This document shows positions 4,186 through 31,704 of a stretch of 64,000 bases of DNA, piece after piece. Every line of letters starts with the position of its first letter. The stretch's first letter is position 1. The notes beneath the pieces were generated by a model. The model was not told the DNA's origin, searched no databases, and saw only the letters and a list, made by a program, of their open reading frames with translations. The stretch is from an uncultured archaeon (GTDB lineage: Archaea; Iainarchaeota; Iainarchaeia; Iainarchaeales; VGJJ01): NCBI GenBank assembly GCA_964358055.1, contig CAYHNT010000001.1, positions 3,308 to 67,307 of the forward strand. The letters are read 5' to 3'. The position numbers and the translations under genes are program-made.

Positions 4186-4253
4186 ATGGTCCTGGGGGTT
4201 TTCTTGGATTTAAACCCTATTTGGGGGAACCTTTTTCCTTGCATTTGGGCCCC

Positions 4254-5690: not shown

Positions 5691-5733
5691 AAGGGATGAT
5701 TTTTTCTCTTTCATTACCTAAAAGGTATCTCCC

Positions 5734-9329: not shown

Positions 9330-9334
9330 AAATA

Positions 9335-9406: not shown

Positions 9407-9500
9407 AGTATAGCCTATTCCAACCCCATTTCGCCATTGGTTCCAATGCGTTGGTACCACTATTTCGGTTCGGGAGTGCTTTAAAACGCTGGGGTTGGCT

Positions 9501-10088: not shown

Positions 10089-10284
10089 TTGTTTGAGGAT
10101 CGCCCGGGAATCCTTCGTGGAGCATGGGCACGCGCACCCATTTTCTCTTGTTGGGTCCCTCGTTTTCTAAAACTTCCCAATGGCTACCGTTACGTCGAAC
10201 AAATTTATCAGTGTGCTTGAGTTTTTGACCCGAAGAATGCATCGGAGAAATTGTAATCGGCTTGCTTGCTTTAGGGCGAGGCAT
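10036..10284 (-). CDS. Small hypothetical protein; overlaps the downstream ORF by 53 nt in a different frame
   Basis: 82 aa from the ORF track only. Confidence 0.25.
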   Translation of the reverse strand: MPRPKASKPITISPMHSSGQKLKHTDKFVRRNGSHWEVLENEGPNKRKWVRVPMLHEGFPGDPQTIGTPFTRPQRKNGREKA

Positions 10285-10324
10285 TCAAATGGAATCGTTT
10301 TCGGGTATTAAAGTGTGCGTTTTT

Positions 10325-11830
10325 TTAGTCCGCTAAATCGTCGAATGTTTTTCTTCCGGTTGAAAATTTCCAGAACACTTCGTCTAACGCATCTACTGGG
10401 ATGCGTTTCTGTTGCATCGAGTTTCGCTCGCGTAAGGTTACGGTTTGCTCTTTGATGGTGTCATAGTCAATCGTAATTCCATACGGTATTCCTATCTCGT
10501 CCCCACGTGCATAGCGTTTTCCAATGCTTCCACTTTCATCGTAATACGCATTCACGGACATGGATTGGAGTCGTTGGAAAATGCGATACGCTTCCTCGGA
10601 CATTCCATCTTTTTTCATCAAGGGATAAATTCCTACTTTGTAGGGTGCAATGCGATGAGGTAAATCCAGGAAAACGCGCTCTTCTTCTCCGCGTGTTTCT
10701 TTACGATACGATGCATCAAGTGCGGCGATGAATGTTCTGTCGAGTCCCATGGATATTTCGAAAATATGGGGATAGTATTTGGAAATGTCTCCTTCTTCTC
10801 GTACTTGTAAATCCGCTTTGGATGTTTCGGCGTGCGTTTTCAAATCGTGATCCGTGCGATAATTGCATGCGGCGAGTTCCAACCAGTTTCCATCTAAATT
10901 TACTTCAAAGTCCCATGTTTCATGGGAATAGAAAGCCCGTGCTTCTTTTTCGAGTTCGCGGAAGCGCATTTTTCCAAGAGGAAACGACAACATTTCTCCT
11001 AATTGTTGCGTGCGGGCTAAAAAGTAGGCAATGGTTTTTCCTGAAACAATGCTTTGATCTACAGCTTCTTGACACGTCAGCGAATGGATTTCTTTATCGG
11101 AGAGTAAATACAAATTGATTTTGTACTCCTTCACATCGTCCCAGTTTTCCACATGATCAATTTTATCCGGATTGAAGAATATTTCCACATCCATTTGTTC
11201 GAGTTCGCGTTTACGTATCAATCCTTGTCTCGGAGCAATCTCATTTCGGAATGCCTTTCCTACTTGTCCAATTCCTAATGGCAGTTTTACTTTTCCTTGC
11301 TTCCATATTCGGATGAAATCCAAGAAGATGCTTTGACACGCTTCGGGTCGTAAGTACGCAGGATTGGCTTTCATCGCTCCCACATTCGATTGGAGCATCA
11401 TGTTGAACCTGGTTGTGCGTCCGAGGGGCATTTTGTCTTTGGCGCACACAATGTTGTATTCTTTTACTTTTTCGTCGTAGAATTCAAGCGCTGCTCCTTC
11501 GGGTACTTCATGTCCTAATTTTTCTTCCACCAATTTATCCACACGATAAGGTGTCTTGCACGTCTCACATACTACAAGTGGATCGTTGAAGTTTTCTAAG
11601 TGTCCGGAGGCGCGAAACACGCTCTCGGGGAGGATGATGCTTCCGTCTATTTCAATCATCCCTTCACGCTCAACAAGGAATCGTCTCCATAGTTGTACGA
11701 TACGGTGCTTGATGCGCATGCCTTCAGGTCCGTATTCGTAAAAACCCGCGAGTGCATCCGAGTATATTTCGGCGCTCGGAAAAAAGAGTCCTCTGCGTTG
11801 GGCAAGGTTGGTGATTTCGGGTAATGGCAT
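10325..11830 (-). CDS. glyS: Glycyl-tRNA synthetase (archaeal/eukaryotic alpha2 type)
   Basis: RRGLFFPSAEIY..GFYEYGP N-terminal signature. Class II motif 2 GKAFRNEIAPRQGLIRKREL. C-terminal anticodon-binding domain. Confidence 0.85.
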   Translation of the reverse strand: MPLPEITNLAQRRGLFFPSAEIYSDALAGFYEYGPEGMRIKHRIVQLWRRFLVEREGMIEIDGSIILPESVFRASGHLENFNDPLVVCETCKTPYRVDKLVEEKLGHEVPEGAALEFYDEKVKEYNIVCAKDKMPLGRTTRFNMMLQSNVGAMKANPAYLRPEACQSIFLDFIRIWKQGKVKLPLGIGQVGKAFRNEIAPRQGLIRKRELEQMDVEIFFNPDKIDHVENWDDVKEYKINLYLLSDKEIHSLTCQEAVDQSIVSGKTIAYFLARTQQLGEMLSFPLGKMRFRELEKEARAFYSHETWDFEVNLDGNWLELAACNYRTDHDLKTHAETSKADLQVREEGDISKYYPHIFEISMGLDRTFIAALDASYRKETRGEEERVFLDLPHRIAPYKVGIYPLMKKDGMSEEAYRIFQRLQSMSVNAYYDESGSIGKRYARGDEIGIPYGITIDYDTIKEQTVTLRERNSMQQKRIPVDALDEVFWKFSTGRKTFDDLAD

Positions 11831-14055: not shown

Positions 14056-14133
14056 GGGCCCGTAGCTCAGCCTGGACTTCAGAGCACTTCCGTCCTAAGG
14101 AAGGGGTCGTGGGTTCGAATCCCACCGGGCTCG
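14056..14133 (+). tRNA. tRNA-Arg (anticodon CCU), with an unusually long 13-nt D-loop
   Basis: Acceptor GGGCCCG/CGGGCTC, D-stem GCTC/GAGC, anticodon stem CTTCC/GGAAG with loop GTCCTAA, T-arm GTGGG-TTCGAAT-CCCAC. Confidence 0.6.
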
Positions 14134-17255: not shown

Positions 17256-17418
17256 GTTGAGTATTTCGTCTATTTATGCGTTTGGCCTGGGGTTAAGGCT
17301 CCCATGGCAAAAGAAGCCATTTACGGGTTTCTTTTCTCTTTTCGTTCTCGGCGGAAAATTCTACATAGGTATTTAATCGAGTCACCCATGTTAGGCGTTA
17401 GGTTGGGAGGGAGAGGAC

Positions 17419-18054
17419 ATGAGGGTTGAGAAAAACATATTGGTAATCGGAATACTCATTTTAGGAATGAGTGGAATATGGGCCGCGAGCAATTGGCTGA
17501 CACCCACTGAGTCGAATTTTATTTCAACAACTTCTCCAAACAATACCAATCCCACTTATTTCTCCAGCCCCACTTCAATTGGTTATACGGATCTCTCCCA
17601 TAATTCAATTCAGACCAAAATGAGTTTGCAAGGAAAAGTAACGGACTTTAATGGTAATTTAGTAGATGATGCAAATTTAGGAGTAAAAATTAGTGATGCA
17701 AACTCCTGTACAACGAATGTGTTCTATGATTACACCTTCCCAAATTTGATCCAGGATGGATTCTTCAACGTGTTATTAGGACAAAACGAATTATTGAAAC
17801 TCAATTTTAATCAAGACTACTTCATGTGTCTGTATGTTAACAACGAACAGCTCTCCGGTCCCCAAGTGTTTCGTGGTGGACAAGGAGAGGTTCATTCAGA
17901 TGCATTATTTGATGGAAACGCGACAACTCCTTTAGATGTGAATTATTTGAACGTCAAGAATGATTTGAATGTTACAGGCAACCTCAAGTTTGGTTGTGGT
18001 AAGATTTATTGGAATGATTCGAATCAAACCCTCGTAATCCAGGTGAGCTGCTAA
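17419..18054 (+). CDS. Secreted hypothetical protein with signal peptide (operon gene 1)
   Basis: Signal peptide MRVEKNILVIGILILGMSGIWAASNW. GGAGGGAGAGG RBS-like element 8 nt upstream. TAATG overlap with the next gene. Confidence 0.5.
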   Translation: MRVEKNILVIGILILGMSGIWAASNWLTPTESNFISTTSPNNTNPTYFSSPTSIGYTDLSHNSIQTKMSLQGKVTDFNGNLVDDANLGVKISDANSCTTNVFYDYTFPNLIQDGFFNVLLGQNELLKLNFNQDYFMCLYVNNEQLSGPQVFRGGQGEVHSDALFDGNATTPLDVNYLNVKNDLNVTGNLKFGCGKIYWNDSNQTLVIQVSC

Positions 18055-18824
18055 TGCGAGAAATCACGATAGTATGCGTGTTCGTGATGGCGCTCTTCTT
18101 CGCAGGAGGAGTGTACAGCCAGTTTGCGCAAGGTAACGAGGTGCAGGAAAGTATCTCGCGCGGCCTTGCGTATTTGGAATCACGACCCCAGTATGACAGT
18201 GAGCTGTTAGTGATGCATATGATTCAAGCGAAAGGAAATCATCCTGAAGTAGGAACAGCCATTTCAAGTAAATCGTCAAAAACGGATGATTTTCATTATC
18301 CGATTAAGCAGTTTGTTTCGAATGAGCCGATTGAAATGGGGTCTGTTTCCAAAGAAACATTAGAAGCGCCATTTTACTCCGATTTTATTAAATATTTCAA
18401 ATGCGAACCATTATCTCAAGAGTGGATTAATTCTCTTTCAAATCTTTCAGACACAGAAGACGAACCTTACAACGGCGCGCATGCTCTGTGGATTCTTTCG
18501 TTGATTCGTCAAGATTATTTGGGTGGTCGTTGCGGGGATCATTCTGCTTTTGCTGAATCGTTAAATGTTGCTATTGATGCCAAAGCGATAGAATTGGAAT
18601 CGCGTTTAGAAGATAAGAAGAATTTTGATGCATGGGTCGAGCGAATCGCAGTTTTAGGTTTTGCAGGCCATTCGATTTCTCAAGAAAATGTCGAGTATAT
18701 TGTTTCAATGCAGGCTGAGAATGGCGGCTGGGCTCCTCAATTATTTGAGGGTGAGACATTGAATGAAGAACGTTCTCATACGACGGCTCTTGCTGTTTGG
18801 GCCTTGGTGGAGGCATCTTCATGA
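18054..18824 (+). CDS. Secreted protein with prenyltransferase/terpene-cyclase-like alpha/alpha-toroid repeat (operon gene 2)
   Basis: Signal peptide. QAENGGWA....SHTTALAVWAL resembles the PF00432-type repeat. Confidence 0.4.
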   Translation: MREITIVCVFVMALFFAGGVYSQFAQGNEVQESISRGLAYLESRPQYDSELLVMHMIQAKGNHPEVGTAISSKSSKTDDFHYPIKQFVSNEPIEMGSVSKETLEAPFYSDFIKYFKCEPLSQEWINSLSNLSDTEDEPYNGAHALWILSLIRQDYLGGRCGDHSAFAESLNVAIDAKAIELESRLEDKKNFDAWVERIAVLGFAGHSISQENVEYIVSMQAENGGWAPQLFEGETLNEERSHTTALAVWALVEASS

Positions 18825-19588
18825 ATTTCAAATTTTTTTTGGTCGGCTTTGCCCTGGTTGTTTTTTCGTTCTCGGCTTGGGCAGATTCCTGTGCGGATCC
18901 TTCTATTTCGATTGTGGTTGGCACGGACCGATGGTCTATTGGAAATACGTTGGATGTGAATCTCACGTTTTCGGCGAACCCCTCTCCTTCCTCTCTTTGT
19001 CATTGTTTAGAGACAGCTGACTGCGGGATGGAGTGGCAGTCGGATCACAATGGTTCGTGGAATAAAATTCCCAAGAATACCAATTCCGCCATTGATTTGA
19101 ATTGTTCTGACGTTGAATGTTGGACTGGTCGGAGTCATCCGACTGAGGATTTAATGCAAACTCGTTCAATTTCATGCATTGATCAAAATACTTTTCACAT
19201 TCGAGGGCATCATAAGTTTACGAATACGAGTAGTGCGGTAGTAACTGTGTACTGTTATCCTTCTCCAGCATGTACGCCTCCTGTGAGTGGAAATTTTACG
19301 GTGAATCAATCCTGCACATTCATCGCCGTTCCTGTCTTAGTGGACGGGAATTATTATATTGGTTCGAGTGGGTATGTAAAGCACAATGATTCGGATGTTA
19401 ATTTCTTTTCGAATGGTGCAAAGTATTTGAATATTCAGGATGGTGGAAGAATTGATTTGAATCATAGCATGATTTTCGCGGGATTGAGTTTTGAGCAAGG
19501 TTTATTGGGTGGGTTTCTTGGTTTGATTGGCATTTCTTTAGCTGGAGCTTATTCTTTTTTTATTCGAAGAAAGGGGGCGTTGGCGTGA
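18821..19588 (+). CDS. Cys-rich secreted protein with a C-terminal TM anchor (operon gene 3)
   Basis: Start at Met9 gives an ATGA overlap with the previous stop. Signal peptide, about 20 Cys, C-terminal GGFLGLIGISLAGAYSFFIRRKG anchor. Confidence 0.5.
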   Translation: MNFKFFLVGFALVVFSFSAWADSCADPSISIVVGTDRWSIGNTLDVNLTFSANPSPSSLCHCLETADCGMEWQSDHNGSWNKIPKNTNSAIDLNCSDVECWTGRSHPTEDLMQTRSISCIDQNTFHIRGHHKFTNTSSAVVTVYCYPSPACTPPVSGNFTVNQSCTFIAVPVLVDGNYYIGSSGYVKHNDSDVNFFSNGAKYLNIQDGGRIDLNHSMIFAGLSFEQGLLGGFLGLIGISLAGAYSFFIRRKGALA

Positions 19589-22350
19589 GGTCGTTTCTTT
19601 TTCTTTTCATTTTTTTGTTTTTTTCTTCTGTGGTTTTTGCTCAGTCATATCCTTTGATTTCGGATGGTTCTTTTGAGGAAAATTGTGCATTATCTAAGTG
19701 TGATTATAATGTTTCTCAAACGATTGGGGACGATTGGATTTTTTCCAAGAATGGTGCGGCGAATGTTCAGGAGTTTACGATTACTCAAGACTTGAATAGT
19801 TCAGATGGTTGGCCTTCTCATGGCAGTTATTATGGAAAGCTGGATGCGAATTCTATTGGTGGTTTTGCTCAGATTCAAAGCACGTTTGTTTTCAATGGTG
19901 GAATTATTTACTATGATGTGAACCATTATGGAGGGGCTCCTTCTTTTCCGAATCCTCCTTTTTCAGGTGCACATTTCCAAATTACCTATACCTATGAAGA
20001 TGGCAGTGGTGAGGTCACATTATTGGACTCTAACACGAATTTGATTGGTCTAGACAGAAATGTGGTATTGCCAAATCATCCTGGGAAGGTTTCTTTCAAA
20101 TTGACGAATCAGTTTCAGCAGCAGCATAATACGATTGTTTTTGACAATTTGCGCTGGCGACGTCTTCCCGTGATTGAAACAGATTCGTATCCTTTTGATT
20201 CGCATGTTTATACGGGTCAAAGCTTTTTTGTTGATATCAATTTTTCTACGGGAGCCTCTTGCCAACTTAAAGATGATAGCACAGGACAATCTTATTCAGC
20301 TACGTACATTGGGAATGGTATTTACCGTTCGAGTGGTTTGTCTTTTTCGAGTACTGGGTCGAGTCTGGTGAAGAATTTTAGTGCGATTTGTAATAGCGAG
20401 ACCAATGATGATTCTTTTTACTTGTTGAAGTTGAATAGGGATGGGTTGATTTCACAAAACGGTGGCTTTGATGTAAATGGAACGCCGTCCACGACTACTA
20501 GCACAAACACAAAGTTTCAGGATTGGAATGTGGGAAGAAGTGGAACAGGCTCGTTTGCCGTGATTATAGATAATTCATCGAGTAAGATTGCAGCAGATGG
20601 TCTTCATTATGGAATAATGACAGCAACGGGAATTGGGAGTGCAACGGATATTACTTCCCAGAGTCTTTTGCAAGGTGGAACCGTATTCTTTGATGTGAAT
20701 CGGATAACCGGACCAACGCTTGGTGATTCAAACTTCCAAGTGATTTATTTCCCATTGTCAGGCGGTTCTACGGTGTTGTTGAACCTTTCTTTCACCATTC
20801 AATCCAGTCAAATCGTTGGGTCTGACAAAAATGTGAGCATCCCTAATCAATTGGGTCATCTCCTTTTTCGTGTTCAAAACGTTGGAGTTGGACAAAACGC
20901 GCAACTGTATTTGGATAATGTACGATATTCAAGTCCAAAATTTTCTGAAAACACATCCTGTAAACAAGTTATTTACAAAGGGGACTCATCACAAAAGATT
21001 GATTTAGTCTTTGTTGGAAGTGGATTTGAAGACCAAAATCAATTTGAATCAACGATACGATTCGTGATAAATGAAGATGGCGACCAGAACGGATTATTTT
21101 CATTTGAACCATTCAAATCAAATATTAACAAATTCAATATATGGATGGTGGATGAATACAAAACATATACACTTCACCATCTGGACGTGTCGCCAATTAT
21201 CGATAAATGGACATTTGGTCCTTTTCCATTGATTGATGCGACGATAGCATGTCCATTTGGAAATGAATTTGCGCTATTATCACTTTATCCGCGATTCCGA
21301 TCTTACGTTGATGCTGACGCTAATTCAGCTTCATATACAGGTAAGCCTGCTCATTTTGCCCATGTCGGGTTGGGTGGCGAAATAGTTGGTGACTTGAATT
21401 ATCCTATTGACGTGGGTATTACTGATCCGTATGATCAAAATTGTCAAGGGAATGGACAATGGCCTGCGTGTGGGATTTCCGCCTATGATCCTAATGATTC
21501 ACAAAGGCTTTTCGCTCACGAATTTGGCCACAGTTTTGGTGGATTATTTGATGAATATAATAATGGAAGTTCCAGTAATGGAAGAGATACTGGGACACTA
21601 GCGAATTGTGATGCAACAAATATTTGTCCTAAATTCTCAGGATATTCAGGGATTGATTGTAATGCAGTATGTGGTTTTACAAACTGGTATCGTCCATATG
21701 CCGAAAACACTTTGATGGGGGATCACAGAAAACAAAAGATCGATTATGAGGAAGTAAGTGAAGACAGACTAACTGCCATTACTAATGGTTATTCAACTGC
21801 AACCATTTATGATCAAACAATTGATATTTTTCACACTTTCATCTTGAATGGGGCAATTGGGGCTGGCAATATGGACCTAAGCTCCGTGAATTTCGTTCCG
21901 GGAGCAGCTCCAGAGATGGTATTACCTACGAACCCACGCTACATGCTAAAAGAATTTTCGAGCACAAATGATGTGCTATATGATTACAACTTCGACATCC
22001 CCTCTGCTATTAATTTTGATCTTTTAAGTGGGGATGATGCAAATGGCAGTTATTCATTAATCGAGGATAGCAATACTCTGATCGATCTAGTAGATGTAAA
22101 CTTTTCTGTTAGAGCACCGTATTTACCCGGAGCAGTGAGAATAATTATTTATGACATAAATGGAACGCAGTTACTAGAAATCAGTACCTTGCCATTCACG
22201 ACTAATTTGTCGACTAGTATCGGATATGGCGGTGGATTTGTTACTTCGGCCAATTATAAAGTTGGATATAGTTTATTGCAACAACCTACAGTCGACCTCA
22301 ACAGTTCGAGTTATAAAGTACAATTGGGGTGGAATGCATATTATGACTAA
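19585..22350 (+). CDS. Secreted zinc metallopeptidase, M64 (IgA-peptidase)-like (operon gene 4)
   Basis: GTG start in a GTGA overlap. Signal peptide MRSFLFLFIFLFFSSVVFA. AHEFGHSFGGLFDEY (HExxH...DEY) at nt 21514-21558. KIDLVFVGSGFED resembles the M64 N-terminal motif. Confidence 0.55.
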   Translation: MRSFLFLFIFLFFSSVVFAQSYPLISDGSFEENCALSKCDYNVSQTIGDDWIFSKNGAANVQEFTITQDLNSSDGWPSHGSYYGKLDANSIGGFAQIQSTFVFNGGIIYYDVNHYGGAPSFPNPPFSGAHFQITYTYEDGSGEVTLLDSNTNLIGLDRNVVLPNHPGKVSFKLTNQFQQQHNTIVFDNLRWRRLPVIETDSYPFDSHVYTGQSFFVDINFSTGASCQLKDDSTGQSYSATYIGNGIYRSSGLSFSSTGSSLVKNFSAICNSETNDDSFYLLKLNRDGLISQNGGFDVNGTPSTTTSTNTKFQDWNVGRSGTGSFAVIIDNSSSKIAADGLHYGIMTATGIGSATDITSQSLLQGGTVFFDVNRITGPTLGDSNFQVIYFPLSGGSTVLLNLSFTIQSSQIVGSDKNVSIPNQLGHLLFRVQNVGVGQNAQLYLDNVRYSSPKFSENTSCKQVIYKGDSSQKIDLVFVGSGFEDQNQFESTIRFVINEDGDQNGLFSFEPFKSNINKFNIWMVDEYKTYTLHHLDVSPIIDKWTFGPFPLIDATIACPFGNEFALLSLYPRFRSYVDADANSASYTGKPAHFAHVGLGGEIVGDLNYPIDVGITDPYDQNCQGNGQWPACGISAYDPNDSQRLFAHEFGHSFGGLFDEYNNGSSSNGRDTGTLANCDATNICPKFSGYSGIDCNAVCGFTNWYRPYAENTLMGDHRKQKIDYEEVSEDRLTAITNGYSTATIYDQTIDIFHTFILNGAIGAGNMDLSSVNFVPGAAPEMVLPTNPRYMLKEFSSTNDVLYDYNFDIPSAINFDLLSGDDANGSYSLIEDSNTLIDLVDVNFSVRAPYLPGAVRIIIYDINGTQLLEISTLPFTTNLSTSIGYGGGFVTSANYKVGYSLLQQPTVDLNSSSYKVQLGWNAYYD

Positions 22351-22687
22351 TTTAACGCTTGGTCTCACAGTGATTGGTGTACTTTTATTTATTTTTGGGC
22401 TGAACGGGGTCATTGTTTCTTTTTCGAATTATTCAACATCGGCCGGATTGGAAAATACGTTTCCAAGTCCTACAGCATATTTTTGGGCTGGTATCGGGTC
22501 AATTTTGATTGTGATTTCTTCAATAACAATTACGCCTATTTATGAAAAATTCTTTAAGAAAAATAAATTCTTAATGAATATCTATATGAGATCGGTTATT
22601 TTTATTTTGCTTTTGTTGATTGGGTATTCAATTATTTTTCTCACGATGCAATTCCAAACAACTCCGGCGTTATATCCTGTACAGTGA
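22334..22687 (+). CDS. Small polytopic membrane protein (hypothetical)
   Basis: About 118 aa with 3-4 hydrophobic segments. Start overlaps the peptidase stop. Confidence 0.4.
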   Translation: MHIMTNLTLGLTVIGVLLFIFGLNGVIVSFSNYSTSAGLENTFPSPTAYFWAGIGSILIVISSITITPIYEKFFKKNKFLMNIYMRSVIFILLLLIGYSIIFLTMQFQTTPALYPVQ

Positions 22688-23001
22688 TTTTTCCAATGAA
22701 TATTGAAAAAATTAAAACAGTAATCGGTGTTGGAGTCTCTTTAATTAGCCTTTATTTTTTTTATTTGATGGCTTTATGGCTCCCGACAACCGGCGGGACT
22801 AATCCTACTCGCGAATTTTACATGAATATTTTGGGCCCTTTCTTGTTACTCTTGTCTGGATTATTGTGGATTAGTTCTATTAGAAAAAATATTCCATTTT
22901 TCAAACAATTTAATGATGGTAGTCAAGTAATAATATCTGTTCTTCTTCTCATTGTAGGATTTTTGTTTATGTTTGCGATGTCACCTTTAAGTGGGATTTG
23001 A
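22684..23001 (+). CDS. Small polytopic membrane protein (hypothetical)
   Basis: 105 aa with 3 hydrophobic segments. 4-nt overlap with the previous gene. Confidence 0.4.
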   Translation: MIFPMNIEKIKTVIGVGVSLISLYFFYLMALWLPTTGGTNPTREFYMNILGPFLLLLSGLLWISSIRKNIPFFKQFNDGSQVIISVLLLIVGFLFMFAMSPLSGI

Positions 23002-23367
23002 AATGATATTTGAAAAGAATAAAATCCAATTTAATTATCTGTATAAACCTGTTTGTAAACTCGACGGGGAATATTATGTCCAAGGATAAACAAATTTCTA
23101 TTTTTGCCGATTCTGGCGGTAATTATGCTTGCTATAGTAGTTTGGCTCTTAATGCCAATTTCACCATCCTCCAATCATATTGGACTTACTGGATACACTT
23201 GTACAGTAAGACCCAAATATTGGATAAATACGAATAAGTTTGTTTGTTTTCCATTGTCGGCTTCGTGACTCTTTGAGGATTTGACAGGCGATTTCGGCAC
23301 TTCCCCACCCATCTCGTTTTTATTGCGCCTTTTCATTCTGCCTGAAGTCAAAGAAGAGGTTTTTTTC

Positions 23368-24372
23368 ATGCAAGTGTTTGAGGATCGTGGAGTGATGATT
23401 CGGGGTTCAGAGCGTCTTTTAGTGGACCCTTCTCATCGAAAGGTGGATGCAGACAAAGTGTTTGTGACGCATGCGCACTCCGATCATACTATTATTGGGG
23501 CCAAAAACGAATTCCCCTATTTCATGAGCACGCAAACCCATGGAATGATTGAGGAAAAGATTCCAAAGAAAGCCGTTACTAGAAAAATGGATTTTGCTAA
23601 AAAGTATCGCGCGGGAAACGAGCGTGTTTCACTGGTGAATGCGGGACACATTTTGGGTTCGTCGCAGGTAGTAGTAGAAGGGGATCAGAAAGTAGTGGTT
23701 ACGAGTGATTTCAAATTGCAGGATTCCATTGTAATGAAAGGCGCGGAAGTGGTGCCGTGTGATATTTTAGTGATTGAGTCCACTTTCGGACAAAAACAAT
23801 TTGCATTCCCCCCACGTGAAAGTGTGTATGAGGAAATTGGAAACTGGGTAAAAGAAGCGAAGAAAAATAACATGCTTCCCATTCTCGCAGGATATGCAAC
23901 TGGGAAAACGCAGGAGTTAACTAAAGTCGTGAATGAATACGCAGGTGTTACTCCGTATGTCCATGAAAGTATTTTTGATAAAAACAAATTGCATGAAAAG
24001 TTTGGCGGAAAATTAGGAGACTATGTGAAGTTGGATCATAATTTGAAAGAAGCCGAGTTGCTCATTCTCCCACAGAGTTTGTGCGCCCCGCACGTGTTGC
24101 ACGCGATTAGTGTTTCGGCTAAAAAATCAATTGCCTCCGCCAAGTGTACAGGTTGGGTGTGGAAGGAAAGCTATGATCGTAATTTTGCATTAAGTGATCA
24201 CGCGGATTACAATCAATTGATGCAATACGTTCAGGAAGCGCGACCCAAGCAAGTGTACACTCATCATGGTTTTGAGCGTGAATTATCGTTATCCATTACT
24301 AAAGAATTGGGCATTCTATCCAAACCTATTGGGGAAGCGAAACAGAAAGCATTGGCCTCGTTTGTTCATTAA
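23368..24372 (+). CDS. beta-CASP metallo-beta-lactamase family nuclease (short paralog)
   Basis: Start at Met30. VFVTHAHSDHT (HxHxDH), NAGHILGS, C-terminal SDHAD...THHG. Confidence 0.7.
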   Translation: MQVFEDRGVMIRGSERLLVDPSHRKVDADKVFVTHAHSDHTIIGAKNEFPYFMSTQTHGMIEEKIPKKAVTRKMDFAKKYRAGNERVSLVNAGHILGSSQVVVEGDQKVVVTSDFKLQDSIVMKGAEVVPCDILVIESTFGQKQFAFPPRESVYEEIGNWVKEAKKNNMLPILAGYATGKTQELTKVVNEYAGVTPYVHESIFDKNKLHEKFGGKLGDYVKLDHNLKEAELLILPQSLCAPHVLHAISVSAKKSIASAKCTGWVWKESYDRNFALSDHADYNQLMQYVQEARPKQVYTHHGFERELSLSITKELGILSKPIGEAKQKALASFVH

Positions 24373-24399: not shown

Positions 24400-27300
24400 A
24401 TGAAGAAAAACCTGCTTCCGAGTATGAGCGTCTTAGATTCACTCAAGAATGTTTATTTTGAGCTTGAGGACAAATATTACGCTTTTTTGGACAAACTTCA
24501 AACCAAACTCCCCGTGTATTCAGTCGTTGATCCGGTGGATAAAATACTCCCCAGTTTTGGTATTCTCCTTGCCCTTGTGGTAGCAATTTTGGGCTTTGGT
24601 TTGTTCTCCGCGCTGGCAGGAGTGGGCGGGGGATTTGAGACGGTTGTTGAATTCAATGACACGCAAGGAAACCCCTTGGAAGGCGTGCAGGTTTCATTTG
24701 AACGTGATGGAAAATTAATCGAAACACTCTTTACGAAAGAAGATGGTTCTGCAACCACGAGCGTGGGGGCAGGAACTTATTTTATTACGGCCTCCAAAGA
24801 AGGCTATGTCGAATTAGTGGAAGAAGTGGAAATCAATTCCGCATTCACTCGAATTTTTACGCTTTCAAGCGCGACCCCTGAAACCACGCAGCGTGCGTTG
24901 TTGATTCAGGATGCACAGCAAGGAATTGTGGGAATGCTTTCACCGGTGGCCATCTCTCTTGCGTTCTCCTGTCAATCGGGAACGCCTCCTTCGAATCAAA
25001 CCGTGTACAATGGAAATGTTTCATTTTTGCAGCCCGGTGACTGTACCGGATTGAGTGTAACGATTTCAGCCAATGGTTTCCTGACTAAAACACAATCAAT
25101 CTTAGGCGACACTACCATTGTCGTGTTGCAATCCACTGCCGCATTTGAGCCCCCTCCTGAAACGGAACAACCCGATGCGGGAAGTGTAGAAATCATTGCA
25201 GTGGAGACCGGCGGTGCACCCTTGGAACAAGCACAAATAAAATTATACAAAATTCCAAGTGTAGGTTCTAACATTCTTGCAGACCAAGGATTGTCCGACC
25301 CGAATGGATTGTCTACGTTTTCAAACGTTACTCCCGGAAAGCACATCGTGATTGTGTCCAAGGCCGGATATAAACAAACTCAGAGTGCGGAATTCCAAGT
25401 CAATGCGGGGGAGAAAGCCACGTTGAATGTGGAAGTCGCCAAAAGCAGTTCTAAACGAAAAGTGTTTGTGAAAATTTTGAGTAGCGCCAATCAAATTATT
25501 GTTCTAGGCTCGAGTGTTTCATTGTTCGTGCAAACCGCGGGTGGAAAATACATTGAGTACGAGTCCTTCACCAGCGACACGAATGGAATAGTAAGCGCAC
25601 CCCTTGCGGATTTCAATGGGAACACCCAACTTGTCGTAACGCACGGAGATTTTGTCACCAAAATTTTACTCAACACGGGGATTGTTTCGGAAGACGCAGT
25701 GAGTCCCATTCCTATCTTACTCGATCCCTTAGCCGCACCCGGTTCAAACGGTAGCAGTTCGAACGCCGTTGTGGCAGATGTGAAAGTAATAGACGAAGTA
25801 GGATTGAGCGTGGTGAATGCGACTGTTCACTTGTACACGCCGGATGCAAATGGGGTGTTAGTTGGAACGCTTCAAACGAATACCCTTGGAATTGCACGAT
25901 TTACCAATCTTCCCGCCGGCACTTACCAAGCCACTGCCTCTACAAGCGTAGGCGATGGGGCAAGTCCTAAAATACAAGGAGATTTGGGTAAGATTATTGT
26001 ACTCCCTGTAAGCTTGTCTCTCGGAAACGCATTGGTGCAAGTGACAGTGAAAGATGAATTAGGTAAAGTAGTGACGGATGCGAATGTTTTCATTTATTCA
26101 TTTGTTGAAAACACCCTTCAATCTGCAAGTAAAACAAACGCACAAGGGTTGGCACAATTGGGTGTGATAACCGGACAAAAGGTGTATGTAAAAGTCGAGA
26201 AGGCTACCTATCTTCCTTTTTCATCTGTGCCGTTTGACGTGATCAAGGATAACACGCACATTATTCAGCTTGAAGTTAGTCTTACGAGCGCCTCGCAGGG
26301 AGTGGATGTTTCATTAACGAGTATTTACGAGCTCTCTGCGACGCAGGGACCAATTCTCGCACAAGCATTAGTGCCGGGTAACACGTATGCTTTCCATTTT
26401 GCAGTCAAAACGCCCGTGCAACAAACAGGAATGAAAGCAGTGGTGCGCGTGAACAAAGATTCTCCTGCTGCACAAGGCGCAACGGATGTGGGTAGCATTG
26501 TAGGTGGAAGCACGGCCAAAGGTGGCGTGGCGTTTTACACGACGTATAATTCAAATGATGAATTTTCTCCCTTGATTCCTGCAGACTCAGGAGTTCCCTC
26601 GAAAGTGGCATTGAATACGCTTGGAGATGTGAACGGTGCCAGTTCGTTTGAGTATATTGTGAATGTTAAAATTAATCCCGCTGCGCTACCCAACACGGAC
26701 AAGTTGGATGTGAAGTTCCAATCTAAAGGCGGCACGCAAGTTTCGCCCTTGTATTTTGAATCCTTCACCATCGGCGCACCTCTCCCTGGGCAAGGGGATT
26801 TTTCATTTGTCTTTTTCGTTTCCACGCAAGGAGGGACAAAGACTCAGGTGAGCTCGTCTGTTCCTTTGGTGATGTTCGCCCAGCAAGACTATGTGTTAGA
26901 CTACGTGATAACGAATACCTCGGGTAGCAACTTCCCCAGCGCCACCATGCTCCTCACTACGAATACTCCCGCGTCATTCACCGCCGCACCCAATCAGGTC
27001 TCGTTACCCGGATTCAACAATAGTTCTTCCGTGAGCGGGAGCATCACCATCAAGAGCACGCAAGAGTGTAGCAGTTCTCAAACGCAGTGTTCTACTCTCA
27101 CAGCAAACTTGAGTGGGGTAGGAACAGGAAATTCACCCACGAATTATCCCTTGTCCATTTTCACTTCTCCCGAGAAACAACTCGCGATGAATATTACTCC
27201 TTCCTATTTGATTCCGGCTCAAACACAATTAGTGCAAGTAGTAGTAACGGATCAATTGAGTAATCTTGCAGGGACATCTAAAGGAGTACAAGTGGAAGGC

Positions 27301-30300
27301 CAATTGGAAAACTCCTCCGGCGCCCCTCTTGGAAGTTCTATTCTTTTTACGGAATCAACCAATGCATTGTTTTTTGCTTCCATTCCTGCCGCGAGTGAGG
27401 TAAGCCAATTGCGCGTCACGGCATCCGCGGCAGGCTACGTATCAGATGTGGTAGTTCTTCCAGTTTCCAATCAGATTTTGTTGAATTATTCGCAGGACTT
27501 TAGTTGCGTGAGTTTGAATCCAAATCCTTTGTCTTTCAACTTGGGCGCATCCGGCTCGTTGAGCGTGCAAACCATTAGTTGCCCAGAGGACATTGATCTT
27601 TACACCACGGGCTTCTCTGAGAATAGCACTGTGATTCAATTGGCCGTGAAGAATGGTTCGAATACCATCACCTCGAGCAACCCCTTGTCCTTGAATGAGA
27701 GTGAATCCAAAACGTTAAGCGTGCAATCTCCTTCGTATTTTGGACAATACCCTTTGTACGTGTATGCTAAGTACAAGAGTCAGTCTACTTATTCCTTAGT
27801 CAAGAATGTCGATGTGATTGTCAATCCTCTTGCAGGAAGTTCCACGTGTTTAAATTTGTCCAAGTACGCGTTTGACGTGAAAGACGGTAGCGACAATGCA
27901 ACCGTAGTCAACAATTGTAATCCCGGCGTCCACGATGCGTTTTTGCCCCGTGCTGTGGTGAATGTGAATGGGGTATACGGTCATGCCATTCCTCCTGTAC
28001 TCACTCCTGAGATGCAAAACCCTGGTAGTTTGGTTCCCTTTTCATACCGTGTGAGTATGGATTATGATAATTCAACTAATTTGGATGTCAATCACGATGA
28101 TTTTCCTCAGTTTTTCACGGCATCCAATTGGAACCGATATGCTATCACTAATCCTGCTAAGTTTTTTACCCTGAAAAGCGAATTTGCTGGAGTCACTCCT
28201 GTTTTGATTAATGATGATCATTACAATGGTAGCGATTTCATTCTTGAAAGTCCAAACGATCCCCAAACCCCGTGGGCGGCTCCTGCAAGCGTGCGTTCGG
28301 TGTTGTTTGAAACCACCTTTGTCACGAGAAATGAAGTCACGCTCGATGAACTTTGTTTTACCTCCACCAATATCGATGCTATTCTGGTTCGAATTGATGG
28401 GGTGGATGTGCAGACCGCCCACTCTCCCAAATGTGCAATCCCCAATTATCTTTTTTCACCCGGGCCCCATGCGATTCAGATTTTCATGTATGCGGTAGAA
28501 GGTCAGAACTATACGCTGACTGTCAAATACAAAGACGCCCCTGCCACCACCGTTGGAAGCAATACGGGTGGATACGCTCCTCTTTCGGATGGTAAAAACA
28601 AGGGATTCTTTGTGAGTCCCTTGTATGGTATTCTATACAGCAATGACACCAAGAAGAACGGCCCCCTGTTACACGGTCCCTTTTCCAATGGAGTCATTCC
28701 CTCTACCAATAGTGTAACGCCTAAGTACATTGACAATGTAGGCGGGAATATTCAGTCGATTATTCGTAACAAAGCCGGTGGAATGGAGCACTTGAAGCAG
28801 TCCTATCTGCATATTTCCTCCACCAACCCCTCCGTGCGTACCTTCATGCATCACACGGATGCATATGCCCAATACGTTGGGTTCGACGACGCGACGGGAC
28901 AACAAGATATTGTATTTGAGAACTTGGGAATGGAAGGAGAAAAGTACGGTCTTCTTACGTTAACCGATTATTCACTCCCCACCAGTGCGTCGGGTAAAAC
29001 ACTCGATGTTGGGATTCTCTTGGATTCGTCTCCTTCTATTATTTTGAATGAGAATGATGAAACCTCCTCTTCAAGCGGAACCGTGTATCAGGAAGGACTA
29101 TGTAAGACGTTAATTGACATTAAGCGCGGATTGGAGTATTATTCCAACGCCACCATCAACATGCAAGTCGCATTGATGCACGACGTGAGTGATACGTATC
29201 ATGCGTCCTCGAATCAAGCACAAAATCTCCCGTGTTTAGCACAGTTTCCCAACATCACGGAGTTATTCCCTGGGCAATTTCCTGGTTACACGGAAGGCAC
29301 GCATAATTTGGATGAAGCCTGGGCATGGGGTGCACAAAAGTTTGCCTCGCATGCGTTTTGGAAAAACTCGACCAAATTAATGATTGTTGTCACGGACAAT
29401 AAGCCCACGGGATTGGGAAACGGAAAACTCACGACGGATTGGCAAGGGAGTATTGAGGAGTTGCACGTGAATAATGCGGCAACCGAATTAAATAATCGTG
29501 GAATTCGTGGAGTGGTATTGTACAAGTATCCTTTGGAATCTTCTTCGGAAGCAAACCACCCGGCAGGAAGCGATACCAAGCAGGATGCCGTGGAAATGTA
29601 TGAGTTGTTTGCCCAGCAAACGAATGGTTTCACGGAGGCATTAGACTTTTCGGAGCTCATCAACAATAACAACCCCCATTCCTTTGATCAGGCCGAATAC
29701 AATAAGGTGGCCATTCGTTTGTTACAACATGCGTTTCCTACTAAACAGGAAACCATTGTGGTGAAACTGGTCTCGCATCCCTTAGACGCGTGTATTGGGG
29801 AGAATGGGGAAGTGGGTGTTACTGGAAGCTCCGCGTTGCCTAAGGTTTCCTACAATTGGCAATGGGGTTCCACGCAACAAAACATGTGTGATTTCAAAAC
29901 AAACGATCCTACGAACTTCCGTTACTGTGACGCCACCCAATTCATGATTACGCTTACGCAAAAATTGTTTGCATTGGAACAAGCCTATGCACCGGGTGCC
30001 ACCCCTGCACAGCAAGCCCAAATCCCTTCCCTCACAAGTTTTGATGTGTACGTGATGCGCGACGCATTGAATGATGATTTTAGGAATGACTTTGTGGAGT
30101 TCTTTGTGAACAGCAGCTTCACCGACGCTCCTGCGTATTTCAAAAGCGCATTGGGCGGAGCATGGAAAGACTATGTAAACCCCGCATTCAACAAACTTAC
30201 GTTTGAAATTGATGGAAACCCCACTAATTCAATTGTGTCAGCGGGATTGTATCGTGCGCAAATTCAAGTCACGTGGGAAAGTGACGTGGGCACGTTCTTC

Positions 30301-31704
30301 GTGGCGAGTTCTCCTTCCGCACAAATTACAGTTAAGCTGACCAAGCTCGGAGATGCAAGTGGACTTTCAGGTTATTCTGAATTCCTCGAGCTTCCCTTGG
30401 ATGGCCTAATTGGTTTGGATGATTCCTCTCTGACATTCCATCGCAATGGGTACGGTACTGCTTTCACCGGACAAACCTTGGACTTAGTTCCCACTCCCGG
30501 CTTAACGTTACGAACGTATCCCAGTCAGCCCGGGCAAACGGCGTTGAACACGGTCAACGTGCCCGCGCTTCCTGCATTCAAAGAGTTGAACACGCAGAAT
30601 AGGGGTGAATTGGTGAGCTTCAACAAGAGCAGCGGAACGCTTTCCCTGCGTCCAAGTGTCCCCGCTCCCGTGTTAGGAAAATGGTCAAGCAATTCCTCAG
30701 GACAAGGACACCTATATTATGGGATTAGCGAAACTTCTTCTCAAGGCGGACAGAGCTACGTTTCTCATTCAACGGACACTGGAACACCCTTATCTAAATG
30801 GGTTCCCATTGCATCGGATTTAACCCAGAGCACATTCGGTTGCACCACCCCTAATTGTGATATTTGTTTGGATGCCGGAGGAAACGCCTTTGTTTCTTCG
30901 CTCAAGTTTGATTTAAACCCGGGAACAGGTGCATGCGGGTTACGTCCTCCTCTTACAAAAAATACGGCGTTTGGTTTTACGTCAACGGGTAGCGTGAGTA
31001 ATGAGTCGTATTTGAGTACGGTGTTCTATCGTGTCCCTGGAAATGATTATTCCATTATTTTAGGATGTAACGATTCGTCCTCCCAACAAATTGGAGCGAT
31101 TGCCACCCATTCAAGTGTGATTTCGAACGGTGGCGCATCCGTTGCGGGATTGGATTTAGGCTCGTCTTCGTTAGAGGATCAACTTGACAATGCGGTTTCG
31201 TTATACGGCATGCTTAATTTGATGGAAAGCAACTACACCTGTATCAACAACACGGCAGGCACGAGTCGCGTGTATTGGAATGCTCCGCGTTTGCGCGAGG
31301 ACTTGGCGAATGCAAAACCCTCATTTGGTCACATAGGAAATTCGTGTGTGGCAACTGGTAATCCATTAGGTGCAGCCGGAACGTTCACCTTGCTCTCCAA
31401 GAATGGAATCATTTCTCAGTCTCAAACCACGTTGGGGATGTGTCCGTTGTACAACAATAATAATGCCCAGAATGGGTATTATGCAAAACTTGGTGTGCCT
31501 TTTCCGGTTGGCACGCAGATTCGTTTCTTAGGATCAGGTGCCATTACGGATGACCCCTTGAATGGGGTGGTGCAGTATCGTTCGAATGCTACTAATTGTA
31601 CGCAGTTGACTTCATTGAATTGTCCGGGTCCAGGAACTCCGTTTGATTTTTGCTCCGCAAACACGGAAAGGTATTGGTCGGGCACTCCTGCAATTAACCC
31701 GTAA
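24400..31704 (+). CDS. Giant (2434 aa) N-terminally anchored surface protein with CarboxypepD_reg/Ig-like repeats and a vWA (MIDAS) domain
   Basis: N-terminal TM ILLALVVAILGFGLFSALAGV. Repeated G(T/K)Y.I.ASK.GY modules. DSSPS (DxSxS) at about nt 29015-29030 and MIVVTDNKPTG at about nt 29380. No C-terminal anchor. Confidence 0.75.
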   Translation: MKKNLLPSMSVLDSLKNVYFELEDKYYAFLDKLQTKLPVYSVVDPVDKILPSFGILLALVVAILGFGLFSALAGVGGGFETVVEFNDTQGNPLEGVQVSFERDGKLIETLFTKEDGSATTSVGAGTYFITASKEGYVELVEEVEINSAFTRIFTLSSATPETTQRALLIQDAQQGIVGMLSPVAISLAFSCQSGTPPSNQTVYNGNVSFLQPGDCTGLSVTISANGFLTKTQSILGDTTIVVLQSTAAFEPPPETEQPDAGSVEIIAVETGGAPLEQAQIKLYKIPSVGSNILADQGLSDPNGLSTFSNVTPGKHIVIVSKAGYKQTQSAEFQVNAGEKATLNVEVAKSSSKRKVFVKILSSANQIIVLGSSVSLFVQTAGGKYIEYESFTSDTNGIVSAPLADFNGNTQLVVTHGDFVTKILLNTGIVSEDAVSPIPILLDPLAAPGSNGSSSNAVVADVKVIDEVGLSVVNATVHLYTPDANGVLVGTLQTNTLGIARFTNLPAGTYQATASTSVGDGASPKIQGDLGKIIVLPVSLSLGNALVQVTVKDELGKVVTDANVFIYSFVENTLQSASKTNAQGLAQLGVITGQKVYVKVEKATYLPFSSVPFDVIKDNTHIIQLEVSLTSASQGVDVSLTSIYELSATQGPILAQALVPGNTYAFHFAVKTPVQQTGMKAVVRVNKDSPAAQGATDVGSIVGGSTAKGGVAFYTTYNSNDEFSPLIPADSGVPSKVALNTLGDVNGASSFEYIVNVKINPAALPNTDKLDVKFQSKGGTQVSPLYFESFTIGAPLPGQGDFSFVFFVSTQGGTKTQVSSSVPLVMFAQQDYVLDYVITNTSGSNFPSATMLLTTNTPASFTAAPNQVSLPGFNNSSSVSGSITIKSTQECSSSQTQCSTLTANLSGVGTGNSPTNYPLSIFTSPEKQLAMNITPSYLIPAQTQLVQVVVTDQLSNLAGTSKGVQVEGQLENSSGAPLGSSILFTESTNALFFASIPAASEVSQLRVTASAAGYVSDVVVLPVSNQILLNYSQDFSCVSLNPNPLSFNLGASGSLSVQTISCPEDIDLYTTGFSENSTVIQLAVKNGSNTITSSNPLSLNESESKTLSVQSPSYFGQYPLYVYAKYKSQSTYSLVKNVDVIVNPLAGSSTCLNLSKYAFDVKDGSDNATVVNNCNPGVHDAFLPRAVVNVNGVYGHAIPPVLTPEMQNPGSLVPFSYRVSMDYDNSTNLDVNHDDFPQFFTASNWNRYAITNPAKFFTLKSEFAGVTPVLINDDHYNGSDFILESPNDPQTPWAAPASVRSVLFETTFVTRNEVTLDELCFTSTNIDAILVRIDGVDVQTAHSPKCAIPNYLFSPGPHAIQIFMYAVEGQNYTLTVKYKDAPATTVGSNTGGYAPLSDGKNKGFFVSPLYGILYSNDTKKNGPLLHGPFSNGVIPSTNSVTPKYIDNVGGNIQSIIRNKAGGMEHLKQSYLHISSTNPSVRTFMHHTDAYAQYVGFDDATGQQDIVFENLGMEGEKYGLLTLTDYSLPTSASGKTLDVGILLDSSPSIILNENDETSSSSGTVYQEGLCKTLIDIKRGLEYYSNATINMQVALMHDVSDTYHASSNQAQNLPCLAQFPNITELFPGQFPGYTEGTHNLDEAWAWGAQKFASHAFWKNSTKLMIVVTDNKPTGLGNGKLTTDWQGSIEELHVNNAATELNNRGIRGVVLYKYPLESSSEANHPAGSDTKQDAVEMYELFAQQTNGFTEALDFSELINNNNPHSFDQAEYNKVAIRLLQHAFPTKQETIVVKLVSHPLDACIGENGEVGVTGSSALPKVSYNWQWGSTQQNMCDFKTNDPTNFRYCDATQFMITLTQKLFALEQAYAPGATPAQQAQIPSLTSFDVYVMRDALNDDFRNDFVEFFVNSSFTDAPAYFKSALGGAWKDYVNPAFNKLTFEIDGNPTNSIVSAGLYRAQIQVTWESDVGTFFVASSPSAQITVKLTKLGDASGLSGYSEFLELPLDGLIGLDDSSLTFHRNGYGTAFTGQTLDLVPTPGLTLRTYPSQPGQTALNTVNVPALPAFKELNTQNRGELVSFNKSSGTLSLRPSVPAPVLGKWSSNSSGQGHLYYGISETSSQGGQSYVSHSTDTGTPLSKWVPIASDLTQSTFGCTTPNCDICLDAGGNAFVSSLKFDLNPGTGACGLRPPLTKNTAFGFTSTGSVSNESYLSTVFYRVPGNDYSIILGCNDSSSQQIGAIATHSSVISNGGASVAGLDLGSSSLEDQLDNAVSLYGMLNLMESNYTCINNTAGTSRVYWNAPRLREDLANAKPSFGHIGNSCVATGNPLGAAGTFTLLSKNGIISQSQTTLGMCPLYNNNNAQNGYYAKLGVPFPVGTQIRFLGSGAITDDPLNGVVQYRSNATNCTQLTSLNCPGPGTPFDFCSANTERYWSGTPAINP

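Follow-up and report, generated by a model that had tools for sequence, protein, structure and literature searches.

A candidate cell-envelope module with a predicted M64/igalysin metallopeptidase and variable protease alleles in Iainarchaeota-type archaea

In a 64,000-nucleotide stretch of DNA from an uncultured archaeon (the window), six consecutive genes, g1 to g6, occupy positions 17419-23001 of the + strand and are joined by start/stop overlaps of 1-8 nt, as seen in the open reading frame (ORF) listing and by direct reading. The fourth gene, g4, encodes a Sec-exported M64/igalysin metzincin with an intact active-site motif, that is, a predicted peptidase. On balance, we lean towards reading the block as a conserved, co-transcribed cell-envelope module of Iainarchaeota-type DPANN archaea whose products make up a surface-held protease/adhesin complex. 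Neither the six-gene arrangement nor its division into a constant and a variable part is described in the literature that we found, and g1, g2 and g3 represent unannotated families. Literature on M64 with DPANN or archaea offered a genome-survey mention only and did not describe this gene combination, which bears out an earlier note on this DNA, made from the sequence alone, in calling the combination undescribed.

The genomes of DPANN archaea are very small, and these organisms probably rely on other cells; to our knowledge, little has been described of their surface machinery for partner attachment and feeding. The archaeal source proposed in the earlier note agrees with the gene content of the window, which includes Nop5, fibrillarin, archaeal-type tRNA synthetases and proteins with class III signal peptides. 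Hainich groundwater (well H41, 0.1-um filter fraction) has yielded a 6-kb contig that matches the window at 99.95% identity. All g1 relatives that carry source names are archaeal (archaeon, Candidatus Diapherotrites, Candidatus Iainarchaeum); Diapherotrites and Iainarchaeum belong to the Iainarchaeota in the kingdom Nanobdellati, that is, to DPANN. Below, L001 to L084 are labels for the related loci that we compared with the window.

Layout of the block and its predicted products

The anatomy of the block is solid. The genes and the leader in front of them are as follows.

17348-17418, + strand: leader and putative promoter region, with an AT-rich TATTTAAT box and the Shine-Dalgarno-like motif GGGAGGGAGAGG
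17419-18054, + strand: g1, 211 aa, joined to g2 by TAATG
18054-18824, + strand: g2, 256 aa, joined to g3 by ATGA
18821-19588, + strand: g3, 255 aa, ATG start, joined to g4 by GTGA
19585-22350, + strand: g4, 921 aa, GTG start
22343-22687, + strand: g5, 114 aa, three transmembrane (TM) segments, ATG start most likely, 8-nt overlap with g4
22684-23001, + strand: g6, 105 aa, three TM segments, joined to g5 by GTGA

The four genes linked by TAATG, ATGA and GTGA and the two overlapping genes for small membrane proteins are thus arranged as the earlier note had it, and all five junctions overlap. Elsewhere in the window only 4 of 26 same-strand junctions do so (hypergeometric p ~7e-4). A GGAGG/GGTG-like motif stands ahead of each start from g1 to g5, and GGGGTGGA is located 9 nt 5' of the g5 ATG at 22343. 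For g5, an independent gene call in the identical contig L005 gives the same 114 aa. We rejected the longer starts of the ORF listing, TTG at 18797 for g3 and ATG at 22226 for g5, as mechanical and too long. From 17348 onwards the DNA resembles that of the sister locus L003, although the genes upstream differ; from its sequence, the leader 17348-17418 may act as the promoter. A scan for sigma-70 promoters and intrinsic terminators, which is ill-suited to archaea, gave counts not above those of shuffled sequence. By hydropathy, the proteins of g1 to g4 all carry a hydrophobic segment at the N-terminus with an AxA-like site after it, in line with the prior assignment of g1, g2 and g4 to the secreted proteins.

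The assignment of g4 to the M64 peptidases draws on several kinds of evidence. The protein scores 30.5 bits against the hidden Markov model (HMM) PF09471 (Peptidase_M64; gathering score 26), the best stretch comprising only ~40 residues around the motif; the catalytic fragment alone scores 34.8 bits, and the g4 homologs in L009, L074 and L076 score 31.6-38.8 bits. A profile built from five g4 homologs matches the Bacteroides M64 structures 3p1v (E 3e-9) and 4df9 (E 3e-8), and the alignment to them spans the 'KIDLVFVGSGF...FEPFKSN...FNIW' block, where the catalytic domain starts, as well as the zinc motif. In the AlphaFold2 model (pLDDT 77.5 overall, 75-94 for most domains), the fold predicted for the catalytic domain is superposable on solved M64 structures. 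HMM, motif and predicted fold therefore agree with the original description of g4 as an M64-like protein of 921 aa with HEFGH at aa 645-649.

The M64/igalysin motif is HExxHxxxGxxD, with an extra residue before the Gly and with the Asp as third ligand (PMC12237041, PMC12402451). Igalysins are a metzincin-clan family with a Tyr two residues after this Asp (the 'tyrosine switch', Y552 in IgAse) and a Met-turn ~58 residues after it; a structural zinc site formed by three Cys and an Asp lies between the Asp and the Met-turn (PMC12237041, PMC12402451). We followed the corresponding residues of g4 through two alignments, one of five close homologs (A1) and one of 30 family representatives (A5). The motif residues H645, E646, H649 and D656 do not vary in A1 and reach at least 90% conservation in A5, and the same is true of Y658, two residues after D656, at the place of the tyrosine switch. 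T709-L710-M711, 55 residues past D656, is a candidate Met-turn at the sequence level only; A1 shows it without variation, and conservation of M711 in A5 is at least 90%. Four Cys (675, 681, 692 and 696), likewise invariant in A1, lie between D656 and the candidate Met-turn, in an arrangement for which zinc binding and disulfides are indistinguishable from sequence. On every feature that could be tested g4 thus belongs to the M64/igalysins, and it is a new archaeal architecture of this known family.

In order, g4 consists of a signal peptide, a jelly roll, a small beta domain, a second jelly roll, the M64 catalytic domain, a beta-sandwich and a 48-residue tail:

19657-20169, + strand: domain 1, aa ~25-195, jelly roll of the CBM/MAM/cleaved-adhesin type
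20182-20439, + strand: domain 2, aa ~200-285, small beta domain (AlphaFold2 pLDDT ~80-93), no family assignment
20452-20934, + strand: domain 3, aa ~290-450, second CBM-like jelly roll
20947-21804, + strand: catalytic domain, aa ~455-740, M64/igalysin fold
21517-21558, + strand: zinc-binding motif, H645-E-F-G-H649-S-F-G-G653-L-F-D656-E-Y658
21832-22194, + strand: C-terminal beta-sandwich (AlphaFold2), aa ~750-870, conserved across the subfamily, profile positions 463-918
22204-22347, + strand: conserved C-terminal tail, aa 874-921, S-x-NY-x-V-x-Y-x-L-x-x-QP...S-x-x-Y-K-x-x-LG

With 29% identity (E 5e-17), the two N-terminal beta-sandwiches are repeats of one another. As isolated Pfam queries, the jelly rolls, the middle domain and the C-terminal region matched no family at E up to 10. 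A HMMER scan of 1.84 billion representatives gave 1634 g4 relatives at E <= 1e-3, of which 52 at E <= 1e-30. Among relatives, the catalytic-plus-C-terminal region recurs in proteins with other extra domains, for example NosD/beta-helix and FG-GAP, and the N-terminal architecture differs from locus to locus. Two further proteins, P0034 (1619 aa) and P0066 (1629 aa), share the double jelly-roll region of g4 (profile ~4-456) and have a C-terminal TM anchor, and no M64 domain was detected in them; the targeting module hence seems to be shuffled among different surface proteins. Apparent splits of g4 in two loci were considered as pseudogenes or phase variation and discarded: that in L003 (3851-3870) consists of scaffold Ns in a coverage-3 contig, and that in L006 (2435-2451) stems from a frameshift where a metagenome contig has a T5 run; both are artefacts.

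Hydropathy gives g4 no membrane anchor of its own. Its tail is predicted to be disordered in the monomer model (pLDDT <50), and the tail motif is present in 21 of the 30 family representatives. We searched a tail HMM against all ORFs of 84 loci and the window, and it matched g4 homologs and one other protein only. Every tail-bearing locus with upstream DNA also encodes a g1-core protein, and 64 distant M64 loci have neither the tail motif nor a g1-core protein. The sole match outside g4 is a 539-aa PKD/Big_9 protein of L084 with the motif right after its signal peptide and a C-terminal TM anchor, whose gene sits immediately 3' of a g1-like gene. L084 (Ga0315289_10000025) comes from a more distant archaeon and has two g1-like genes, at 3090-3965 and within 7932-10581, the PKD/Big_9 gene following the second. 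This co-occurrence, L084 included, suggests that the g1 head domain docks the tail motif. Probably, g4 is held via its conserved tail by constant partners, g1 and/or the 3-TM proteins.

The product of g1 begins with a signal or anchor, from which a variable Ser/Thr/Pro-rich linker leads to a globular domain (aa ~53-211) that is highly conserved and contains four Cys; the final residue of the protein is Cys, as always in the short forms. It is the most conserved member of the module (59-94% identical across loci). Searches against Pfam, NCBIfam, PHROG and PDB, including one with an alignment profile, gave no significant match for g1. The L001 homolog is longer (393 aa) and ends in a Peptidase_S74 chaperone domain (PF13884, E 4.9e-6). 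We rejected a type IV pilin identity for g1: on reading, no class III cleavage motif ([KR]-[GAS]) is seen in it, and it does not match Pfam Class_IIIsignal, a model that does match two other proteins of the window. Sub-threshold matches of g1, g5 and g6 (catechol dioxygenase, Tetraspanin, Ytp1, TctB) were dismissed as noise.

The product of g2 is secreted and carries the conserved motifs GGRCG, NGGW and HTTALAVWAL. The predicted model is all-alpha (pLDDT 88.8, pTM 0.84) with an alpha/alpha-toroid fold. Of the prenyltransferase/squalene-cyclase repeat models (PF00432, PF13243, PF13249), only PF13243 matched g2, and not significantly (E 0.098, 12.1 bits versus a cutoff of 26.1, 29 residues); NCBIfam gave no match, and Foldseek against PDB gave no E-value below 0.1, with identities of 4-16%. 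The toroid named in the earlier note therefore holds as a predicted fold and fails as an HMM match. Class II cyclases are recognised by the catalytic motif DxDD and A2M/complement thioester proteins by CGEQ. As a class II cyclase g2 was rejected, having no DxDD; the nearest string, 'KTDDF', is not conserved across 10 homologs. As a thioester-type protease trap it was likewise rejected, because the conserved Cys motif R-C-G-[D/x] lacks the Gln of CGEQ. The toroid fold of g2 is thus supported, but a specific family is not, as neither HMM, Foldseek nor motif gave a significant match.

Downstream of it, g3 encodes a disulfide-rich type-I membrane protein. Its signal peptide is followed by a Cys-rich ectodomain, which contains 10 Cys and 8 N-x-S/T sequons, and its C-terminal TM segment at aa 228-248 precedes RRKG, in agreement with its first description as Cys-rich and C-terminally anchored. 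Cys 24, 60, 62, 68, 95, 100 and 165 are invariant in eight homologs, and Cys151 is present in seven of the eight. Pfam, NCBIfam, PHROGs and PDB (profile search) returned no match for g3. The C-terminus, ...FEQGLLGGFLGLIGISLAGAYSFFIRRKGALA, has no archaeosortase signal (no PGF, PEF or VPXXXP, no NCBIfam CTERM match) and reads as a plain TM anchor. For the window and L003, dN/dS is 0.07, 0.07 and 0.11 in g1, g2 and g3, respectively; judged by these comparisons, the three are real genes under purifying selection.

By hydropathy, g5 and g6 have three TM segments each, and g5 is a weak paralog of g6, linked through L006_a. They belong to a weakly conserved family of 3-TM proteins of roughly 100-120 aa, a member of which follows the protease gene in most loci: g6 homologs stand after g4 in L003, L004, L006 and L002, and L009 and L001 have 3-TM proteins related through L006_a and L002_a. 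Against Pfam, NCBIfam and PHROGs, g5 and g6 gave nothing meaningful.

The block is also set apart by base composition. Its GC content is 39.3% versus 44.8% for the window, so that it ranks within the lowest 7 of 585 equally sized windows, and the minimum for a stretch of this length in the whole window falls inside it. GC3 of the six genes is 0.29-0.41 versus 0.484 +/- 0.059 in 44 other ORFs. The AT-richness remarked on earlier is thus confirmed by calculation. In seven of the eight loci that have flanks, the module is AT-richer than its surroundings (in L077, for example, 39.8% versus 50.8% GC); module GC is ~37-42% in most loci, and host flanks range from 36% to 51%.

Gene order and allele replacement in related loci

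A word-indexed search returned only four g4 relatives, and further loci were reached by look-ups around g1 and g2 homologs. We found the order g1-g2-g3-M64 in at least nine other loci, as genes with overlapping starts for proteins of ~211 aa, ~256 aa and ~255 aa and an M64 protein. Loci with the full order are L003, L006, L007/L008, L009, L074, L075, L076 and L077, the last being a complete 1.05-Mb genome of a Candidatus Iainarchaeum archaeon (CP064981.1). The expectation that the order is conserved in relatives was correct. The earlier note had staked its reading on M64 HMM support, low GC and conserved order; all of these were found, so that reading stands in outline. In L080, from Hainich well H51, the order is g1-?-g3-g4 with no detectable g2, and L001 and L002 have a reduced set of a g1-like gene, an M64 gene and a gene for a 3-TM protein, with no g2 or g3. 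Distant M64 genes, both archaeal (Woesearchaeota, Pacearchaeota, Nanoarchaeota) and bacterial (Bacteroidales, Ignavibacteria), are accompanied by no g1, g2 or g3, and g2 homologs turned up only within the module arrangement.

The position of the module varies. In L001 it is flanked on its two sides by homologs of window genes 2974-3615 and 4416-5690, and in L002 and L009 by genes for an RFC-like AAA ATPase and for an Orn/Arg decarboxylase. It lies beside T2SSE/T2SSF genes (4052-6993, - strand) in L007, after an exosome/ribosomal gene cluster in L075, and between geranylgeranyl reductase and carotenoid genes in L077. In L003 a KaiC/ArlH-like ATPase is encoded beside the module (22-744, - strand). 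The vicinity of type IV pilus/archaellum-type assembly genes in L007 and L003 could be coincidence or could point to a link with surface-filament biogenesis.

Comparison of alleles revealed a constant and a variable part, a suggestive population-genetic pattern. In close-strain pairs g1 is 92-97% identical versus 35-43% for g4. The window and L003, from the same well, share 94, 91, 70 and 43% identity in g1, g2, g3 and g4, respectively. For L006 and L076, from the same metagenome, the values are 92, 80 and 82% for g1 to g3 versus 35-40% for g4, and their g4 N-terminal architectures differ. L009 and L077 are 67, 62 and 63% identical in g1 to g3 versus 30-33% in g4. The discordance is reversed between L074 and L077 (66, 29 and 34% in g1 to g3 versus 44-48% in g4).

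The boundaries of exchange can be followed at the DNA level. Similarity between the window and L003 begins 71 nt upstream of g1, is highest (97-98% identity) in the 3' half of g1, falls off through g3 and is gone ~100 nt into g4, except for a 233-bp island. This island (20921-21153), where the catalytic domain starts, has 85% identity to L003 and 68-76% to L001, L002 and L004, and is the one island of DNA similarity that g4 shares with other alleles. Between the window and L003, dS rises from 0.47 in g1 to 0.73 in g2 and 1.86 in g3. In L002 and L009, flanks of 2.3 and 2.2 kb are 94.3% and 96.1% identical, and the interiors of 4.6 and 5.6 kb are alignable only at two short islands, with the left breakpoint within g1; L002 has a truncated g1, a g4 43% identical to that of L009 and no g2 or g3. 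From these sequence comparisons we read the module as a replacement-type flexible island in which homologous recombination would shuffle old protease alleles on a conserved g1-g3 backbone.

Proposed function and its alternatives

In the mechanism that we propose, one transcript would yield the six products in fixed proportion, and on the external side of the membrane these would join into a protease/adhesin complex held at the cell surface. The jelly rolls of g4, which are lectin-like, would bind glycan-decorated surface or environmental proteins and the metzincin domain would cut them, which may feed a metabolically reduced cell by peptide scavenging or remodel the surface of a partner cell. 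Deeply diverged g4 alleles would be exchanged by recombination between close strains, with g1 to g3 staying conserved; variability of this kind in g4 would be expected if the protein is exposed and subject to diversifying or frequency-dependent selection. The window also encodes an M3 oligopeptidase F, which would suit the use of peptides.

Several points weigh against this proposal. The function is reached by inference: protease activity, substrate, localisation, complex formation and selective agent are all inferred. Signal peptides and TM segments were called with a hydropathy heuristic and by eye, not with a trained predictor. Bacteroides M64 structures have a flap that blocks the active-site cleft, and BF3526 just trims the N-termini of pre-digested proteins (PMC12237041, PMC12402451); hence an endoprotease role of g4 is not guaranteed. 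The link between g1 and the tail may merely be shared ancestry within one clade, and L084 is a single independent case with the motif N-terminal; as shared ancestry could account for most of the co-occurrence, the case for docking is thin. GC1 of the block is low as well, so that its low GC could partly reflect amino-acid composition, but it is not solely an amino-acid effect because GC3 is also reduced.

The role of the individual partners can be construed in other ways. An unlikely but not negligible variant casts g1, possibly with the 3-TM proteins and g3, as a constant, membrane-tethered, stalked adaptor that docks interchangeable cargo through a short portable motif, with strains swapping cargo alleles. 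The motif would have the form S-x-NY...QP...S-x-x-Y-x-x-LG and stand C-terminally on the M64 alleles and N-terminally on the PKD adhesin of L084. If this were true, the locus would determine which partner cells or substrates can be attached or digested, or would serve as a decoy against viruses. Slightly less likely, in our view, is a glycan-centred system in which g2 is a small six-hairpin enzyme, a GH105/GH88-type hydrolase or lyase-like, and the CBMs of g4 target the same glycan, so that the block strips glycoconjugates from S-layers or cell walls. The identity of g2 to any glycoside hydrolase is 4-14%, however, with no GH Pfam match and Foldseek E >= 0.1; mature g2 (~230 aa) is at least 100 residues shorter than the matched enzymes. 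Terpene cyclases, transcobalamin and the complement thioester-containing domain (TED) score nearly level with them, which argues for a shared fold only, and L001 and L002 have no g2. The protease-maturation or inhibitor module suggested in the earlier note, where g2 or g3 keeps g4 latent or folds it and the membrane proteins handle export, we find improbable, as no positive evidence for it emerged. The toroid protein g2 has no CGEQ thioester, and its weak TED matches fall far below those to glycoside hydrolases and cyclases. Moreover, g2 and g3 are conserved while g4 drops to ~40% identity, the opposite of the co-variation of a tight pair, and L001 and L002 have the protease without g2 or g3.

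Two other explanations dispense with a functional module of this kind. Just as improbable as an inhibitor pair is that g4 is a stand-alone secreted scavenging protease and that the other five genes, for unrelated envelope proteins, are mere neighbours in a compact genome. At least one genome survey does count secreted M64 peptidases of DPANN genomes among the extracellular enzymes that degrade peptides (PMC9563170), and overlaps occur elsewhere in the window too, at the 4 of 26 junctions given above. But order and overlaps are kept in at least nine other loci, down to 28-30% identity of g2 and g3 and in varied neighbourhoods, and the restriction of g2 homologs to the module arrangement also speaks against chance adjacency. 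Most doubtful of all is that the block is mobile-element or proviral cargo, delivered by a virus, a plasmid or an integrative element. The low GC and GC3, the AT-richness relative to flanks in seven of eight loci, the differing genomic positions and the phage-tail-fibre-type S74 chaperone domain of the L001 g1 homolog would fit such an origin. Against it, Pfam and NCBIfam identified no integrase, transposase or other mobility domain in the six proteins, proteins of the window had no PHROG match, and relatives of g1 or g2 were absent from 2.9 million viral contigs; no search was made for flanking direct repeats. The replacement in L002 and L009 has the form of homologous recombination between conserved flanks. 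What the earlier note called horizontal acquisition we would rather term a flexible cassette that changes position and has its protease gene swapped among related archaea.

Overall, we consider the surface-held protease/adhesin complex the likeliest reading. The module assembles three unannotated protein families round a protease family with two characterised members, both gut-bacterial, and it carries the M64/igalysin family over to Archaea in a new domain architecture. The pattern of constant partners and a variable protease makes the locus a likely target of strong population-level selection, and the module is a testable candidate for substrate or host specificity in uncultured archaea.

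Neighbouring features and comparison with known systems

A further small gene follows the block within a 366-bp gap:

23104-23268, + strand: ORF of 54 aa with an N-terminal TM segment and Cys residues, module membership uncertain

At the matching position, L009, L001 and L074 encode a ~130-aa single-TM protein that contains Cys. The ORF may therefore be a decayed remnant of a second small-protein family, although direct similarity was not shown. The 3' neighbours of the module are a metallo-beta-lactamase/RMMBL gene (23368-24372) and then a gene for a 2434-aa protein (24400-31704, + strand) with a hydrophobic segment near its N-terminus. The GC of this gene is normal (0.467), none of the fetched loci shows similarity to it, and it appears to lie outside the module.

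Other observations concern the rest of the window. A 179-aa ORF at 3646-4185 (- strand) has unusually high GC (0.53) and no Pfam match; it sits between ATP-grasp and beta-CASP genes, the spot that holds the M64 module in L001, and this spot may be a second variable site. The 387-aa ORF at 8283-9446 (- strand; GC 0.374, GC3 0.345) contains a LAGLIDADG_3 homing-endonuclease domain at aa 271-350, and its mechanical 5' end overruns a tRNA-Thr (9335-9406, - strand); it may encode a mobile endonuclease beside the tRNA. At 14056-14133 (+ strand), Rfam reports a tRNA (54.8 bits, 78 nt) that is absent from the ARAGORN output and may be an atypical or intron-containing archaeal tRNA. Two adjacent genes at 37097-38458 and 38523-39611 (both + strand) encode proteins with class III (type IV pilin-like) signal peptides, the second with DUF4215 repeats; the products are further surface or pilus-like components of this genome. 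Paralogous genes for class II tRNA synthetases of the Asp/Asn/Lys type lie at 39631-41061 and 42013-43335 (both - strand), with ~1 kb between them.

The known systems closest to g4 are the M64/igalysins, of which only ThomasA/IgAse and BF3526 have been assayed (PMC12402451). Recent structural papers deal with bacterial M64 enzymes only, and the EMBO J paper makes no mention of archaea (PMC12402451). Compared with IgAse/ThomasA of Thomasclavelia ramosa (9qa6, 9qdh) and with BF3526 and BACOVA_00663 of Bacteroides (PDB entries 4df9 and 3p1v for the two), g4 is archaeal and 15-21% identical. Its N-terminus consists of two CBM/MAM-type jelly rolls, not of a C-type lectin-like domain. It has neither the wrapping domain nor the zinc-binding beta domains of the IgAse type, and neither a sortase motif nor a lipoprotein signal. 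Instead it has a C-terminal tail motif of its own and belongs to a conserved operon with three uncharacterised protein families. IgA, moreover, is impossible as its substrate in groundwater. Gingipain-type proteins (Kgp/HagA cleaved-adhesin, PDB 4itc) are bacterial, exported by T9SS and built on a C25 cysteine peptidase, whereas g4 is an archaeal metzincin with no sequence similarity to them.

For the partners of g4, the likenesses are partial. The core of g1 is 57-63% identical to the N-terminal part of the L001 393-aa protein and in this respect resembles S74 tail-fibre-like proteins; it differs from them in that the g1 of the window is short (211 aa), lacks an S74 domain and a PHROG match, and ends in a conserved Cys. 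Relative to six-hairpin toroids (GH105/GH88, class II terpene cyclases, transcobalamin, complement/A2M), g2 is at least 100 residues shorter, at most 16% identical and free of a significant family HMM, DxDD and CGEQ, and so it fits none of these families. The module as a whole can be compared with replacement-type flexible genomic islands, which encode cell-surface structures in bacterial and archaeal populations. It is not a glycosylation or O-antigen cluster like these, being a small operon of constant g1 to g3 and a variable protease gene. It shares with them conserved flanks round a replaced interior, deviant composition, exposed envelope proteins and, in well H41, the co-existence of deeply diverged alleles at one site.

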